This document shows positions 4,510 through 10,651 of a DNA stretch of 28,544 nucleotides, one piece after another. Position numbers and translations under genes: made by a program. The DNA lies in the IMG/VR virus record IMGVR_UViG_3300031519_000158, positions 1 to 28,544 of that record; one strand, 5' to 3'. The notes under the pieces are model-generated. The model did no database searches and was not told the origin of the DNA. It was given only the letters and a program-made list of their open reading frames with translations. Each line of letters begins with the position of its first letter. The stretch's first letter is position 1. Origin of the DNA: a virus. Lineage: Duplodnaviria; Caudoviricetes.

Positions 4510-6285
4510 ATGGCCGACATCAAAATCACTGATCTGACTGCTTACACAGATCCGGTTAGCACTGATGTGCTGCCTATTGTTGATGTTGGCAATGATCTGA
4601 CCAAAAAAGTCAGCATTGCGGACCTGCTGGAGAACGCTGGAACGGGTAGTGCTGCTGCACCTTCGTTTAGTTTTGATGGCGATAATGATACGGGTATTTA
4701 TCGGCCTGGGGCGGATCAGGTTGCTATCAGCACTAATGGTGTTGAGCGCGTTGAGTTTGGCACCAGCGAAGTGGTGTTCAATGATGGCGGTGCTAATGTT
4801 GACTTCAGGGTTGAAGGCGACACTAAATCTAATTTGTTCTTGATTGACGCAGGAAATGATAGCATTCAGACCGATGGCCCTATTGGCGTAGGCGGTGCTA
4901 ACTATGGAGCAGCAGGTCAAGTACTTGTCTCCAATGGATCCAGTGCAGCCCCAACCTGGGAGCAAGTTACTCCATCCGCAGTCTTTGGCTGGGACCACGA
5001 CGATGATACTTATGGGCTTTATCTGCCAGGTACCAGCATCAAAGTCAGCGACCTTACGGGCGCGGTAGACATTGACGTTCAATCGCGAATGCGTCGTTGT
5101 GTCATTAACGATGCTGGGGTTGTTCAGTATTACCTAGACGCTGATGACAGCGACATGAAAGCAGGCGATTGGCTTCGCATTATAGAAACTGAAGCACTTG
5201 ACACTGCTTATACTGGCACAATTAGTGAAAGCACAAATAGTTCACTTCGTGTCGGTGTACCGGCATGGGCTGCTGGTACGTTCACCGTGGGGCAGCGTGT
5301 TACGAATGGCGGGTACTTGTGGGAATGCCTTGCAGCCACTTCAACCGCTACACCTGCCGCTGGTGCAGTAGCAAGTGACCTTACAGGTACTGGTGGTCAA
5401 GTGGTTGTTGAGGTGCCTGCATTCAGCGTGCGTTACGGCTTCTTAAATGGTGTTCACACCCGTGAAGTCAAATTGGGTTGTAACGATGGTCTTATTGCCC
5501 AAGGTTTCCGACCACATCCTGCATTTATCAAGACAGACGGTACTTACAAAAGTGCGTTCTATTTTGGGGCTTATCACACCTATGACGATGCTGGCACTGG
5601 ATCTAGCGTAAGCGGTCAAACAAATACCCGCAGCCAAACCCGCAACACCTTCCGCGCCGAAGCCGCAGCCCGTGGCACTGGATGGCATGTATTGTCTTAC
5701 TTAGAGCTGGCTGCTATTCAAACACTGCTTATTTGCGAGTTTCAGGATTACAACTCACAAAAAGTGATTGGTAATGGCCCTGATGCTGGCACAACTTATG
5801 GAGTGACAACAGGTCAAAGTGATGGTGATGGTAATCACAGCGTCAACAGCACTGATAACGGTTCCAATGCTGATGATTACATGTCATATCGCGGCATTGA
5901 AAATCTTTATGGTCGCGCGCGGCAATTCGTTGACGGCATAAACGTTTATGAGCGAGTGGTCTATTTGACTAATGATCAAACAGCTTTTGCAGACAACACT
6001 GCTGATGGTTATGACTTTTACGCTCAAGTTCCAACTGGATCAGCGTCATACCAGAAAGAGCTACATCCGTTAGCAGATGTATTTTTACCGTCTGTTGTGA
6101 CGGGAGCAAGCAGCACGACGTACCTGGGAGATGCTTTCTGGACCTTTTCCGGGTGGCGTGTGGCCGATGTGGGGGGCGATTCCAGCCTTGGTACGCGGGA
6201 TGGGGCCTTCTGCTTGGTTCTGAGCCTTGCGTCGGGCAATTCCAGCGCGGTCGTCGGGTCTCGCCTGGCGTATGCTGAAAATTAA
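4510..6285 (+). CDS. DGR target protein: tail fibre/receptor-binding adhesin with C-terminal C-type-lectin-fold (FGE/Mtd-like) variable domain
   Basis: N-terminal MADIKITDL fibre domain and GSAAAPSFSFDGDNDTGIYRPG motif. C-terminal SYRGIENLYG...VDG and GG......DGAF.L......S....GSRL, typical of DGR CLec targets. The last 46 codons contain the VR. Confidence 0.88.
   Translation: MADIKITDLTAYTDPVSTDVLPIVDVGNDLTKKVSIADLLENAGTGSAAAPSFSFDGDNDTGIYRPGADQVAISTNGVERVEFGTSEVVFNDGGANVDFRVEGDTKSNLFLIDAGNDSIQTDGPIGVGGANYGAAGQVLVSNGSSAAPTWEQVTPSAVFGWDHDDDTYGLYLPGTSIKVSDLTGAVDIDVQSRMRRCVINDAGVVQYYLDADDSDMKAGDWLRIIETEALDTAYTGTISESTNSSLRVGVPAWAAGTFTVGQRVTNGGYLWECLAATSTATPAAGAVASDLTGTGGQVVVEVPAFSVRYGFLNGVHTREVKLGCNDGLIAQGFRPHPAFIKTDGTYKSAFYFGAYHTYDDAGTGSSVSGQTNTRSQTRNTFRAEAAARGTGWHVLSYLELAAIQTLLICEFQDYNSQKVIGNGPDAGTTYGVTTGQSDGDGNHSVNSTDNGSNADDYMSYRGIENLYGRARQFVDGINVYERVVYLTNDQTAFADNTADGYDFYAQVPTGSASYQKELHPLADVFLPSVVTGASSTTYLGDAFWTFSGWRVADVGGDSSLGTRDGAFCLVLSLASGNSSAVVGSRLAYAEN
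6145..6265 (+). repeat. DGR variable region (VR)
   Basis: 121-bp ungapped match to 6341-6461 (offset 196). 21 mismatches, 20 of them opposite TR adenines. Ends in TCGGGTCTCGCC. Confidence 0.96.
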
Positions 6286-6292
6286 GAAAAGC

Positions 6293-6298
6293 TATACT
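6293..6298 (+). promoter_or_regulatory. Candidate -10 box (TATACT) for the TR-RT transcript
   Basis: Matches the recurring (GC)TAnnnT box seen before many genes in this window; located between the target stop and the TR. Confidence 0.35.
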
Positions 6299-6303
6299 TA
6301 TAC

Positions 6304-6325
6304 GGTGATGCCAAATTACATCACC
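6304..6325 (+). other. Inverted repeat/hairpin downstream of VR (candidate DGR homing cruciform or 5' structure of the TR RNA)
   Basis: GGTGATG (6304-6310), 8-nt loop, CATCACC (6319-6325), 18 nt after the target stop codon. Confidence 0.5.
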
Positions 6326-6340
6326 TTGGCTTGGCTCTGT

Positions 6341-6461
6341 TTTTCCGGGTGGCGTGTGGCCAATGTGGGAGGCAATTCCAACAATGGTACGCAGGATGGA
6401 GCCTTCTACTTGAATCTGAACAATGATTCGGGCAATTCCAACACGAACATCGGGTCTCGCC
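6341..6461 (+). repeat. DGR template repeat (TR)
   Basis: 29 adenines, with 10 AAY codons in the VR-equivalent frame. A-free 5' end (21 nt) and 3' end (12 nt). Lies directly upstream of the RT gene. Confidence 0.96.
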
Positions 6462-6579
6462 GTTGCCCCCAGGTTTTTAGTGAACCATACAGAGCAGGCC
6501 ACACCTCTTGGTGAAACAACTGCACCGCATAAAGCATTAGTAGGTACGCCGAATATGCTGCGACGCTGGGGGCTTAAAA
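6462..6579 (+). ncRNA. DGR spacer (Sp) RNA segment between TR and RT, structured
   Basis: GCCCCCAG (6465-6472) pairs with CTGGGGGC (6566-6573). Internal CACC-TCTT-GGTG hairpin (6502-6513) and an AGCAT-TAGTAG...CGAAT-ATGCT stem (6533-6559). Confidence 0.65.
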
Positions 6580-7626
6580 ATGAAACGTTATGGTAATTTA
6601 TATCATCAAATTTACGACATAGAAAACCTTCGGGTTGCTTACGAAAATGCAAAGCGTGGCAAGACCAAAACTCAACAAGTTATAAAAGTAGACGAAAATC
6701 CTAATTGTTATTTGCTTAAAATACAGCAACTGTTAGAAGATGAAGCATTTGTGAATGGCAAATACACCACTTTCGAGCTGGTAGAGCGCGGCAAACATCG
6801 CGTTATCCATGCCTTACCATTTTTCCCTGACAGAATTATTCACCATGCAATCGTTCAAATTATCGGTCCAATATGGATAAAAACGTTTATCCGCGATAGT
6901 TATTCCTCGATACCAGGCAGGGGCATACATGATGGCGTTAGACGCATCAAACGTATAATGCCGAACTGCAAGGGATGGTATGCGTTGAAATGTGACATCA
7001 AAAAATTTTACCCATCGATAGATCATGACGCACTTAAAACAGCTGTCCGCGCAAAGATAAAAGACCCAAGCCTGCTAAAGATTCTGGATACAATTATTGA
7101 TTCTGAAGAAGGCGTACCGATTGGTAATTACTTAAGCCAATATTTTGGTAACGTAATATTTAACTCATTTGATCATTGGATAAAGGAGGATCAAGGCGTT
7201 AAGTATTATTTTAGATATTGCGATGACTTTGTCATTCTTGCCCCAAGCAAAGAAAAACTTCATTTGCTAAAGAAAGAAATAGAAAGCTACTTAAAGCAGC
7301 TTAAATTAACACTAAAAGAAAACTGGCAAATATTTCCTATTGATTCTAGAGGCGTTGATTTTATGGGTTATCGTTTTTGGTGTGATAAAACTTTGGTTCG
7401 CAAAGCAACCATTCAGCGATTTAAGGAAAGATTGAAGGTCAAGCGTATGACGTTGAATGAAGCAATTCGACTGCGACATGTCATTGGATCTTTTCGCGGT
7501 TGGCTTCGGTACGCTGATACGTCTAAGCTGATAAACGAAAGCGTATTGCCAGCCAAATCCCGTGTCAAAGCCTACCTTCGTAAATTACGGCAGCGATTAT
7601 CCCAGACCTCGCTTCGTCAAGAATGA
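6580..7626 (+). CDS. DGR-type reverse transcriptase (bRT-like)
   Basis: KxRVIHALPFFPDRIIHHAI, SYSSIPGRGIH, LKCDIKKFYPSIDH, GVPIGNYLSQ (DGR-diagnostic IGxxxSQ), RYCDDF (YxDD) and GVDFMGY. 348 aa, with no maturase or endonuclease extension. Confidence 0.96.
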   Translation: MKRYGNLYHQIYDIENLRVAYENAKRGKTKTQQVIKVDENPNCYLLKIQQLLEDEAFVNGKYTTFELVERGKHRVIHALPFFPDRIIHHAIVQIIGPIWIKTFIRDSYSSIPGRGIHDGVRRIKRIMPNCKGWYALKCDIKKFYPSIDHDALKTAVRAKIKDPSLLKILDTIIDSEEGVPIGNYLSQYFGNVIFNSFDHWIKEDQGVKYYFRYCDDFVILAPSKEKLHLLKKEIESYLKQLKLTLKENWQIFPIDSRGVDFMGYRFWCDKTLVRKATIQRFKERLKVKRMTLNEAIRLRHVIGSFRGWLRYADTSKLINESVLPAKSRVKAYLRKLRQRLSQTSLRQE

Positions 7627-8934: not shown

Positions 8935-9216
8935 GTGATTGAAATTTACGCAGCAATCCTAGGCGCATCTATCGGTATCGCGGGGATGTCCGTCTCTGGA
9001 TTCAGTAGACGCACCAGCGAATCGAGGGAAGCAGTTATTCGGCTTAGTGCTGGGTTGGAATCCATCGCCACCAAGTTGGAAGATTTGCACCAAGACATGA
9101 AGGCAGAAAAGGTTCAGGCGACTGCTGACCGACGCGAGATCTATGAACGGCTTAATGATCACGGCAATCGAATAATTTTATTGGAAAGCTCTAGGGCTAA
9201 AATCAATCCAGATTAA
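8935..9216 (+). CDS. N-terminally membrane-anchored coiled-coil protein (lysis-cassette, holin-like)
   Basis: Hydrophobic N-terminus IYAAILGASIGIAGMSV followed by a coiled-coil. Upstream of the endolysin. Confidence 0.7.
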   Translation: MIEIYAAILGASIGIAGMSVSGFSRRTSESREAVIRLSAGLESIATKLEDLHQDMKAEKVQATADRREIYERLNDHGNRIILLESSRAKINPD

Positions 9217-9226
9217 AGAGCAACCA

Positions 9227-9379
9227 ATGAGAATCGAAGAAGTTTTGGCGCACCCAGCATTCTGGATCGTTGTAGCGGCGGCAAGTGAGTTGATTGGAAT
9301 GTCGCCCAAGTTGCGTGAAAATTCCCTGTTGCAGCTTTTGTTTACAGCACTTCGCTCATTGAAAGCAAAAAAGGGCTGA
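9227..9379 (+). CDS. Small membrane protein, putative holin (50 aa)
   Basis: MRIEEVLAHPAFWIVVAAASELIGMSPKLRENSLLQLLFTALRSLKAKKG*. Two hydrophobic stretches, basic C-terminus, lysis-cassette position. Confidence 0.7.
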   Translation: MRIEEVLAHPAFWIVVAAASELIGMSPKLRENSLLQLLFTALRSLKAKKG

Positions 9380-9591
9380 TCCCTGCTGACGGCAGGTGGC
9401 TGTTCAGGTTCTCAACACGATCACCGCTTGAGGGATTGAAGCGCGAAATTCAACGTCGCAAGTTCGAGGCAACGCTTAAACCTCGTATCGACGCTGAAGT
9501 TGAACGCTGGCATGAATCACAGCCACCAGCCATGCCACCTCCCAAAATTGACGACTTGCACATTAAATCACCCTGGAATGACGAACAGTAA
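9367..9591 (+). CDS. -1 frame ORF probably reached by ribosomal frameshifting from the holin-like gene (fusion about 121 aa)
   Basis: A AAA AAG slippery heptamer at 9367-9373, hairpin at 9382-9396. The -1 frame is open 9319-9591 with no ATG until 9532 and fills the gap to the endolysin. Confidence 0.55.
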   Translation, partial: KKGLIPADGRWLFRFSTRSPLEGLKREIQRRKFEATLKPRIDAEVERWHESQPPAMPPPKIDDLHIKSPWNDEQ

Positions 9592-10651
9592 AGCAATCAC
9601 CCTTGAGCAACTTTTTCGGTACTACAAGAAGGAATTGCCTCATCAGACTGCGGCAATTCAGGAGCTAGAAGCAGATCTGAGCGAAAACGGCTATGACGTG
9701 GCAATGCGTCGCGATCGGGGATGGTTTTCGACATGGAGCCAATCAGGTAAACAGCGCAACTATCAAGCAGCAATTGCACTGGTGAAAAGCTTTGAAGGGT
9801 TTCACCCGGATGCGTATCTCTGCCCGGCTGGGGTGTGGTCGCTGGGCTGGGGGAACACCACAAAGGCTGACGGCTCGCCCGTAATTCCTGGCGATCGGAT
9901 CAGCCAAGAGGACGGTGATCAGCTCTTACAAAAGACAATCGATGGCATTGTCTCGGCATTGGCCGGCTCAATTCCCTACTGGTCAGCCATGACGGAGCAT
10001 CAGCAATCGGCGGTGATCTCATTTGCATACAACGTGGGGAGCTATTTCTACGGCCAGCAAGGATTTGAAACGATTAGCCGGTGCCTGCGCGAGCGGACCT
10101 ACAAAAGCGTGCCGTCGGCATTGCTGCTTTACTGCAATAAGGGCAGTGGCTTCGAGGCTGGCTTGACTCGCAGACGGAAAGCAGAAGGCCAGCTATGGGC
10201 CGGTGAACAAGCTGCAGCGCCAGAACCTGCAACGATCCGGCCTGAGTCACCGTTCAGCACCCGCCTGACGCCTCACATCACGCTGGGTGAGTTTGCACTT
10301 GGGATTGAGGCACGGCGCTTTGAGCATCAGCATCAGGTCGATATGGCCGCAGAGCTGGCGGCGTTTTTGGAGCGTGTTCGCGTCAAGTTTGGGAACAAGC
10401 CGATTATCATCACGTCTGGCTACCGGCCCCCGGCAATAAACCGCAAGGTTGGCGGTGCATCGCAGAGTGAGCACCTCTTTGACAAAGCCGGCGTTGGCGC
10501 GGTGGATTTTTACATTCAAAATGCTGACATCTGGGCGGTTCAGGCATGGTGCGAAGAGAATTGGCCCCATAGCGTTGGCCGTGCTGCATCGCGGGGGTTT
10601 ATCCATTTAGGCCGCAGAAAGGGCGGCTTGTGGGTCCGTTGGAACTATTGA
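9578..10651 (+). CDS. Endolysin: GH24 lysozyme domain plus C-terminal peptidase M15 domain
   Basis: FEGFHPDAYLCPAGVWSLGWGNT, SFAYNVG and GLTRRRKAEGQLW (GH24). TSGYRPPAINRKVGGASQSEH, AVDF and FIHL (M15 Zn peptidase). ATG 9578 preferred over TTG 9500. Confidence 0.9.
   Translation: MTNSKAITLEQLFRYYKKELPHQTAAIQELEADLSENGYDVAMRRDRGWFSTWSQSGKQRNYQAAIALVKSFEGFHPDAYLCPAGVWSLGWGNTTKADGSPVIPGDRISQEDGDQLLQKTIDGIVSALAGSIPYWSAMTEHQQSAVISFAYNVGSYFYGQQGFETISRCLRERTYKSVPSALLLYCNKGSGFEAGLTRRRKAEGQLWAGEQAAAPEPATIRPESPFSTRLTPHITLGEFALGIEARRFEHQHQVDMAAELAAFLERVRVKFGNKPIIITSGYRPPAINRKVGGASQSEHLFDKAGVGAVDFYIQNADIWAVQAWCEENWPHSVGRAASRGFIHLGRRKGGLWVRWNY

Follow-up and report, generated by a model that had tools for sequence, protein, structure and literature searches.

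A probable programmed -1 ribosomal frameshift in a small membrane-protein gene of the cyanophage lysis region

Introduction

Does the small membrane-protein gene that precedes the endolysin in the viral contig IMGVR_UViG_3300031519_000158 encode one protein or two? The window analysed here is this whole 28,544-base contig (positions 1-28,544), and the gene in question, at 9227..9379 on the + strand, encodes 50 amino acids (aa) followed by TGA. Close to its 3' end it carries the heptamer A_AAA_AAG, past which the -1 frame stays open as far as the endolysin start. The explanation we favor is a conserved programmed -1 ribosomal frameshift at this heptamer, to which we give a probability of roughly 0.85 from the comparison of related sequences. 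Such a shift, with products of 50 and about 121 residues, had been proposed in a preliminary description of this DNA, and comparison with relatives strongly supports it. Routine annotation of tailed phages includes programmed frameshifts only in tail chaperones and some capsid genes, and here the site would lie in a lysis cassette.

Slip site and -1 frame

By direct reading, the short open reading frame (ORF), MRIEEVLAHPAFWIVVAAASELIGMSPKLRENSLLQLLFTALRSLKAKKG, has the 3' end GCA AAA AAG GGC TGA. The slippery heptamer A_AAA_AAG occupies 9367-9373 (+) in the X_XXY_YYZ phase of the 0 frame, within the codons GCA AAA AAG, and the 0-frame stop TGA stands one codon past it at 9377..9379 (+). In the -1 frame, the stretch 9373..9591 (+) is open for 72 codons and ends in a TAA at 9589-9591 (translation P0001). 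The peptide encoded there begins GLIPADGRW, contains GLIPADGRWLFRFSTRS, and ends HIKSPWNDEQ; combined with residues 1-49 of the short gene, it makes up a predicted trans-frame isoform of 121 aa. The earliest canonical start codon in the -1 frame past the slip site is the TTG at 9436 (codon 22), which lies 3' of the conserved GLIPADGRWLFRFSTRS block. The endolysin ATG at 9578 falls inside the end of the -1 ORF, an overlap of 14 nucleotides (nt). Heptamer, phase, nearby stop, 72-codon open frame, and endolysin overlap all read as the preliminary description had given them.

The proposed mechanism is tandem slippage in the -1 direction, in which the tRNAs in the P and A sites would exchange pairing with AAA_AAG for pairing with A_AAA_AA; on the G_GGA_AAG heptamer of phage S-EIVl, a Gly and a Lys tRNA would be involved. 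Unshifted ribosomes would terminate one codon past the heptamer and release the 50-aa form, while a shifted fraction would produce a protein of 121 residues in which the N-terminal membrane segment of the short form is retained and a 72-residue C-terminal extension is added. The slipperiness of AAG is determined by the host tRNA-Lys set, and we infer that no RNA stimulator would be needed beyond the heptamer and the nearby stop. Shifted ribosomes would stop at 9591, inside the endolysin start and 14 nt past its ATG, and may couple to or feed endolysin initiation. In the cases checked, the stop of the extension ORF lies within the following gene or at its start: extension and endolysin share 14 to about 30 nt in the window (9578-9591), S-CBS1, and KBS-S-2A, and an ATGA in S-CBS3 (L142 1247-1250).

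Conservation among close relatives

Over the lysis-gene region the window has about 65% nucleotide identity to Synechococcus phages S-CBS1 and KBS-S-2A, and its source is a cyanosiphovirus related to both. A tblastn search with the -1 peptide matched S-CBS1 at 68% identity (residues 1-70) and KBS-S-2A at 65% (residues 2-72), and in each isolate the heptamer stands in the same phase, followed by one codon and TGA. Relatives were collected from IMG/VR scans (59 loci), from metagenome contigs (the best 80 of 152 relatives, one of them the window itself), and from two isolates. This set gave 94 distinct junction regions, and an in-phase AAAAAAG followed by one codon and a stop was present in 88 of them, which were analyzed as close relatives and are the basis of the counts out of 88 given below.

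The heptamer keeps its phase in these sequences while the codons around it change. The codon that supplies its first A is GCA in 48 sequences, GGA in 17, GAA in 8, ACA and TCA in 4 each, CCA in 3, GTA in 2, and AAA and CAA in 1 each. The codon before AAA AAG is thus always NNA across nine different codons, with the first A of the heptamer always in the third codon position. The Lys codon two codons upstream varies freely between AAA (50) and AAG (31). The 0-frame stop at this place is TGA in 81 sequences, TAA in 6, and TAG in 1.

A larger consolidated set of 311 loci was reduced to 193 distinct sequences that were analyzed, with 4 skipped. The two elements seen in the window, a canonical in-phase heptamer and a homologous -1 extension, recur together in 174 of these 193 distinct relatives, with A_AAA_AAG itself in phase in 172. 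The most frequent arrangement is A_AAA_AAG with one codon before the stop and a homologous extension (160/193), followed by A_AAA_AAG abutting the stop, also with an extension (12/193). One sequence, from phage S-EIVl, has G_GGA_AAG with an extension, and one has A_AAA_AAA with an extension. Neither heptamer nor extension is present in 14 of the 193, and one (L176) has A_AAA_AAA without the extension. Three sequences (L055, L056, and L117) carry the extension and were scored as lacking a heptamer at the 0-frame end; in L117 the heptamer is present, the short ORF has an early TGA, and the contig is labelled cov 3.8. In the remaining sequence, L007, the frames are fused. Here (1357-1716) a single-base insertion about 35 nt 5' of the intact heptamer joins the two frames and replaces about 13 residues.

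A separate observation concerns assembly around the heptamer. Logan unitigs of several metagenomes end at about 9363 and at 9388-9391 (window 9354-9391, runs X5 and X6), and in the same runs the summed contig depth is also maximal near the heptamer. Both would be expected if some 29 nt around the heptamer were common to many co-occurring strains, although this is only suggestive.

Heptamer switches and losses in the wider family

Homologs of the 50-aa protein occur in further cyanophages. S-CBS3 reads GGA AAA AAG CTC TAG, and its diverged -1 extension ends AMEIKAPWRRE, with the stop in the ATGA overlap with the endolysin start. In S-EIVl, a 79-kb phage from an arctic lake, the corresponding sequence is CCG GGA AAG CGC TGA, which places G_GGA_AAG in phase, one codon before the stop. 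G_GGA_AAG is also the heptamer of lambda G-T. Immediately 5' of the slip site, S-EIVl (TAA) and L059 have a stop in the -1 frame. The S-EIVl extension has 90 codons, and its tail matches that of the S-CBS3 extension. In the T7-like podoviruses S-B28 and 7B11-B, the heptamer abuts the stop (CCA AAA AAG TAA), and the extension, conserved between the two phages and different from the window type, ends SISLT(S/A)P(W/F). Seven more distinct IMG/VR relatives share the S-B28-type arrangement. Common to the extension types is a C-terminal motif that is roughly [LMI]x[IL][KRQT][SA]P[WF].

Losses are spread over five or more separate groups. The sequence of MedDCM-OCT-S37-C6 and ten relatives at this place is CCA AAG AAA (or AAG) CAG RCY TAR, and none of them has a homologous extension. 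L187 (GCA AAG AAA TGA) and L176 (CCA AAA AAA GGC TGA) run straight into the endolysin gene, and P60 gp39 and S-CBP3_0004 have a charged tail in the 0 frame instead, without the heptamer. L055 (G_GAA_AAG) and L056 (G_AAA_AAG) combine a degraded heptamer with an extension cut after 36-39 codons. On these comparisons, heptamer and extension are lost together. In species-representative genomes there were only two matches, L309 and L310, which are short contigs of metagenome-assembled genomes labelled Gammaproteobacteria. Each includes this phage lysis region and is probably a mis-binned phage contig.

Coding constraint on the -1 frame

Ratios of nonsynonymous to synonymous divergence (dN/dS, NG86 means) were calculated for each frame over the 88 distinct sequences. 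For post-slip codons 3-21, the -1 frame has a dN/dS of 0.17 (dN 0.24, dS 1.43) and is open in 88/88, the 0 frame has 1.45 and is open in 66/88, and the +1 frame has 3.0 and is open in 9/88. Across codons 22-43 the value for the -1 frame is 0.07, with 86/88 open. Mean pairwise dS in the region is about 1.4. The same constraint can be read from single residues just past the slip site. Among 51 distinct sequences, an early Pro is kept in 51/51 over four codons (CCT 26, CCC 15, CCA 8, CCG 2), an Arg in 49/51 over six codons, and a Trp in 50/51. A variant with an in-frame 37-codon deletion (L058, L060, and L061) retains the -1 frame. By these measures, the -1 frame is under purifying selection from just past the slip site.

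RNA structure and upstream stimulators

The preliminary description had pointed to a hairpin 3' of the heptamer as a stimulator of the dnaX type. By direct reading, the small hairpin CCTGC-TGACG-GCAGG is indeed present at 9382..9396 (+), 8 nt 3' of the heptamer, but it is not supported as a frameshift stimulator: it is no better than in shuffled sequence, is not conserved, and lacks covariation. The segment 9374-9410 has a folding energy of -11.5 kcal/mol (z = -0.17), which is matched or bettered by 80 of 200 shuffles; the larger segment 9360-9460 has z = -0.14, likewise not beyond shuffled sequence. RNAalifold found no consensus structure and no covariation among 41 distinct relatives, in which the two middle stem pairs are standard pairs in 13/41 and 9/41. 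The complementarity in the window arises because these nucleotides are the codons for Pro-Ala-Asp-Gly-Arg. Over 42 distinct sequences, the 45 nt 3' of the heptamer have a mean folding z of +0.14. An upstream stimulator is not supported either, a Shine-Dalgarno (SD)-like 4-mer being found 4-20 nt upstream of the heptamer in 6/160 relatives. A second, overlapping slip pattern, A_AAG_GGC, was considered and rejected, as GGC follows the heptamer in 41/88 only and is not conserved.

Single-frame proteins and alternatives to frameshifting

Databases also hold proteins in which the two frames are continuous. P0022 (126 aa) contains LKAKKELIPSDGRW, exactly the predicted trans-frame junction; P0010 resembles P0022 minus one K, and P0012 has 121 aa. 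All three are encoded on 49-63 kb ENA contigs, and the 90% cluster of the fused forms also holds 49-aa short forms ending LKAKKN. Set against the split form, the fused forms look as though their A run counted 7 or 4 bases instead of 6. P0022 and P0010, which differ from each other as if in the length of this run, are encoded on two 63-kb contigs that are nearly identical. Greater divergence is seen in the single-frame proteins P0026 (67% identity to P0001 residues 3-35), P0036 (hhalign 89%, E = 2.2e-6), and P0035. Other candidates were rejected. P0019, P0023, and P0047 show apparent 0-frame read-through with W at the TGA and were read as gene-calling artefacts, and P0024 and P0034 are not fusions, being -1-frame calls from upstream ATGs inside the short gene.

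Several points weigh against a programmed frameshift. The relatives share phylogeny, and the counts above overstate the number of independent observations. Neither an RNA structure nor an upstream SD is supported, and the efficiency could therefore be low. In about 37/88 relatives a TTG or ATG stands at post-slip codons 8-10, and S-CBS1 gp23 is annotated from such a TTG; some independent initiation may take place in those phages. In the distant relatives L057, L059, and L310, a run of A8G or A9 adjoins the stop, where a transcription slip is also possible, and in P0022 and P0010 the run length may vary naturally or reflect homopolymer errors.

The start codons bear on whether the downstream ORF is instead a separate gene, initiated at TTG 9436, at the TTG or ATG of codons 8-10, or by re-initiation at a near-cognate CTG or ATC overlapping the TGA. 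Annotation is consistent with this, as S-CBS3 gp22, like S-CBS1 gp23, is called from an internal TTG or ATG, and the sequence cTGAtc is frequent around the stop. However, in 48/88 relatives there is no ATG, GTG, or TTG in the -1 frame from the upstream stop through codon 16, and the TTG used for S-CBS1 gp23 is CTG in the window and CTT in KBS-S-2A. Initiation at TTG 9436, which the preliminary description had named as the alternative, does not account for the coding constraint on the 21 codons that precede it (codons 3-21, dN/dS 0.17). The Leu and Ile codons at the stop also occur as CTA, TTA, ACA, and ACC, which are non-start codons. A separate gene would, moreover, leave unexplained the invariant heptamer, the NNA codon that precedes it, and the switch to G_GGA_AAG in S-EIVl. 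We consider this alternative improbable.

The A-run lengths raise the question of whether the slip is made by RNA polymerase rather than the ribosome, with an A added in the A6 run so that a minority of transcripts would carry the fusion as a single frame. The A8G and A9 runs of L057, L059, and L310 would suit such a process, as would the apparent run-length differences of P0022, P0010, and P0012 in assemblies. Six As are, on the other hand, a short run for efficient polymerase slippage, and the G_GGA_AAG of S-EIVl has no long homopolymer. The seventh base is G in 172/174 heptamer-bearing relatives, whereas polymerase slippage would favor a longer A run. Contigs from four independent DNA runs show no indels in 9150-9650, with no piece spanning 31 nt on both sides of the heptamer. 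Transcriptional slippage appears slightly less probable still than a separate gene, and ribosomal frameshifting remains the preferred reading.

Homopolymers are also error-prone, and with in-frame versions present in databases, the split could be an artefact or a pseudogene, that is, a single 121-codon gene broken by one sequencing error or mutation in the A run. Yet the same frame arrangement is seen in 172 distinct sequences from isolates and many metagenomes, and this recurrence excludes an error or a pseudogene for practical purposes. The short form matches a PHROG profile of equal length (49 positions), and synonymous sites elsewhere are saturated. We regard this as the least probable of the alternatives, at the very edge of what need be considered.

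Annotation and previous reports

The proposed frameshift is unannotated in each of the six isolate records that were checked (S-CBS1, KBS-S-2A, S-CBS3, S-EIVl, S-B28, and 7B11-B). The extension in these records is either unannotated, as is the -1 ORF of KBS-S-2A, or called from arbitrary internal starts. No report of the frameshift was found in the literature searched, which included PMC9671017, PMC6157547, PMC3751600, PMC3931495, PMC13704836, PMC10885494, PMC3091744, and PMC12859696, the original S-CBS1-4, S-EIVl, and S-B28 genome papers being outside its scope. GeneMarkS-predicted frameshifts near holins in Streptomyces BI2 phages are noted with no detail in PMC9671017. The short gene belongs to a widespread Synechococcus phage group, with 484 stretches in IMG/VR alone encoding a relative of it, and for annotators the correction is a defined one. 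For recoding research, the family offers a natural series with two types of heptamer, two placements of the stop, and losses that arose independently several times.

Predicted properties and function of the two forms

The short protein has one hydrophobic segment (Kyte-Doolittle (KD) 1.83, residues 11-25), followed by the stretch SLLQLLFTALRSL, which is rich in Leu and resembles an amphipathic helix, and by an end rich in K. By hydropathy calculation only, the N-terminal flank is net negative and the C-terminal flank has 6 K/R vs 1 E. By the positive-inside rule, this suggests that the C-terminus, and hence the extension, is cytoplasmic. The extension itself is not hydrophobic, with 13 K/R, 12 D/E, and 9 Pro. 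AlphaFold2 modeled it (81 sequences) with a predicted local distance difference test (pLDDT) score of 76, as a single long helix spanning residues 18-49 (pLDDT about 90), after which comes a Pro-rich stretch. For the fused form P0022, modeled from 4 sequences only, the pLDDT of 51.5 is too low to interpret. In the ESM Atlas, the best matches were viral clusters at 0.84-0.86, below the useful range.

Several features would suit a holin. The product is small, with at least one hydrophobic segment and a charged C-terminus (hydropathy only), and the gene adjoins the endolysin and lies in the lysis cassette. Profile searches, on the other side, give no such name. The short gene matches phrog_22542 (E = 4e-26 over positions 1-48 of 49) and phrog_15106 (E = 3.8e-5), both listed as 'unknown function'. 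What weighs against a holin assignment is that every matching PHROG is so labelled, that no described holin family was among them, and that the short gene has no Pfam match at E<=0.1 and no NCBIfam match at E<=1. A dual-start motif is absent, as the protein begins MRIEEVLAH and has no further Met close by. As a guess from position and architecture, it is possible that the gene is holin-like and that the long form modulates the short form, or the timing or coupling of endolysin expression; we hold this only tentatively.

Somewhat more doubtful is the broader suggestion that in three or more lineages of marine and freshwater cyanophages (S-CBS1/S-CBS3-type siphoviruses, S-EIVl, and S-B28-type T7-like podoviruses) the lysis clock is set by frameshifting. 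If this were true, one gene would give both an effector and a modulator, either holin and antiholin or holin and an endolysin-coupling form, in a ratio set by the slip on A_AAA_AAG or G_GGA_AAG. Burst timing could then depend on host tRNA-Lys and translation state. For phage ecology, this would be a testable handle on cyanophage lysis timing, a trait shaping ocean carbon release.

Comparison with known systems

In E. coli dnaX (tau/gamma) and the IS3 family (IS911, IS150), tandem tRNA-Lys slippage occurs on A_AAA_AAG in the X_XXY_YYZ phase, and the two products share an N-terminus. The window has the identical heptamer in the identical phase and is likewise predicted to give two products with a common N-terminus. 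In dnaX and IS911, a stem-loop 3' of the site and an SD-like stimulator 5' of it take part, and here neither kind of element is supported or conserved. The shift in dnaX also shortens the protein, whereas here it would extend it, with the 0-frame stop one codon past the site.

The tail assembly chaperone G/GT-type frameshift of tailed phages, reportedly described by Xu, Hendrix and Duda in 2004 (cited in PMC3931495 and PMC13704836), is similar in that the slip site lies near the 3' end of a short phage gene, with an overlapping -1 ORF that has no start of its own. In both, the arrangement is kept while the sequences diverge, and RNA structure is often absent. The location differs, since G/GT lies between the major tail and tape measure genes and the gene described here lies between tail-fiber genes and the endolysin, and the product here is a membrane protein rather than a chaperone. 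The P2 E/E+E' frameshift is of the tail assembly chaperone type (PMC3931495, PMC3091744), and PMC3091744 reports no RNA structure for the frameshift in P2-like phages.

The dual-start holin/antiholin gene S of lambda, with the products S105 and S107, is mentioned in PMC3091744. As with lambda S, a single lysis-cassette gene would here give two membrane proteins with a shared transmembrane part in a translation-fixed ratio, and the locus would be a recoding-based counterpart of that dual-start gene. The two lambda forms differ by two extra N-terminal residues from the second start, in contrast to the 72-residue C-terminal extension predicted here from a frameshift. Frameshifting or frame overlap is also tied to lysis-gene expression in known systems (PMC10885494). 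As in those systems, shifted ribosomes in the window could feed endolysin initiation. In the window, however, the -1 peptide is itself under strong purifying selection and is therefore not merely a ribosome-delivery track.

Genes of the lysis region and neighboring features

The window contains tail-fiber genes, the lysis region, an HNH gene, a sigma factor, recombination and replication genes, and head genes. The endolysin at 9578..10651 (+) has lysozyme and M15 peptidase domains (Pfam Phage_lysozyme, E = 4.1e-23; Peptidase_M15_3, E = 8.7e-21; phrog_28234 endolysin, E = 1.1e-137), and its ATG lies 199 nt 3' of the short gene. The neighbors of the short gene are tail-fiber-type genes, an LtfC-like gene, and the endolysin, and the gene order around the short gene and endolysin is the same in S-CBS1, KBS-S-2A, and S-CBS3. 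The S-CBP3 copy of the short gene abuts the lysozyme gene, and the P60 copy lies after the endolysin. In S-B28 it sits between the tail fiber and small terminase genes, presumably the place of T7 gene 17.5.

Directly 5' of the short gene is a partner gene of 93 aa at 8935..9216 (+), whose hydrophobic N-terminal segment (residues 1-20) leads into a charged helical region; its top 15-aa hydropathy window is residues 1-15 (KD 1.97). The ORF matches phrog_26178, function unknown, at E = 1.6e-37. Homologs lie directly 5' of the short gene in S-CBS1 (71% identity), KBS-S-2A (66%), and S-CBS3 (48%), with partner-gene coordinates of 1083-1328 in L001, 1082-1327 in L002, and 651-893 in L142. In the siphoviruses the partner is always 5' of the frameshifted gene, has 80-93 aa, and consists of an N-terminal hydrophobic segment and a coiled-coil-like region. 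Podoviruses S-B28, 7B11-B, and P60 have a gene of similar size and build (phrog_12220) at this position. The partner gene could be the actual holin or a spanin-like component.

The window also carries a diversity-generating retroelement beside the tail genes (4510-7626). Its reverse transcriptase ORF at 6580..7626 matches phrog_1423 (E = 3.7e-118). A 121-nt repeat at 6145-6265, in the 3' end of the tail protein ORF 4510..6285, matches 6341-6461 at 83% identity, and the mismatches fall almost all at A positions of the 6341 copy, the adenine-specific pattern of a template and variable repeat.

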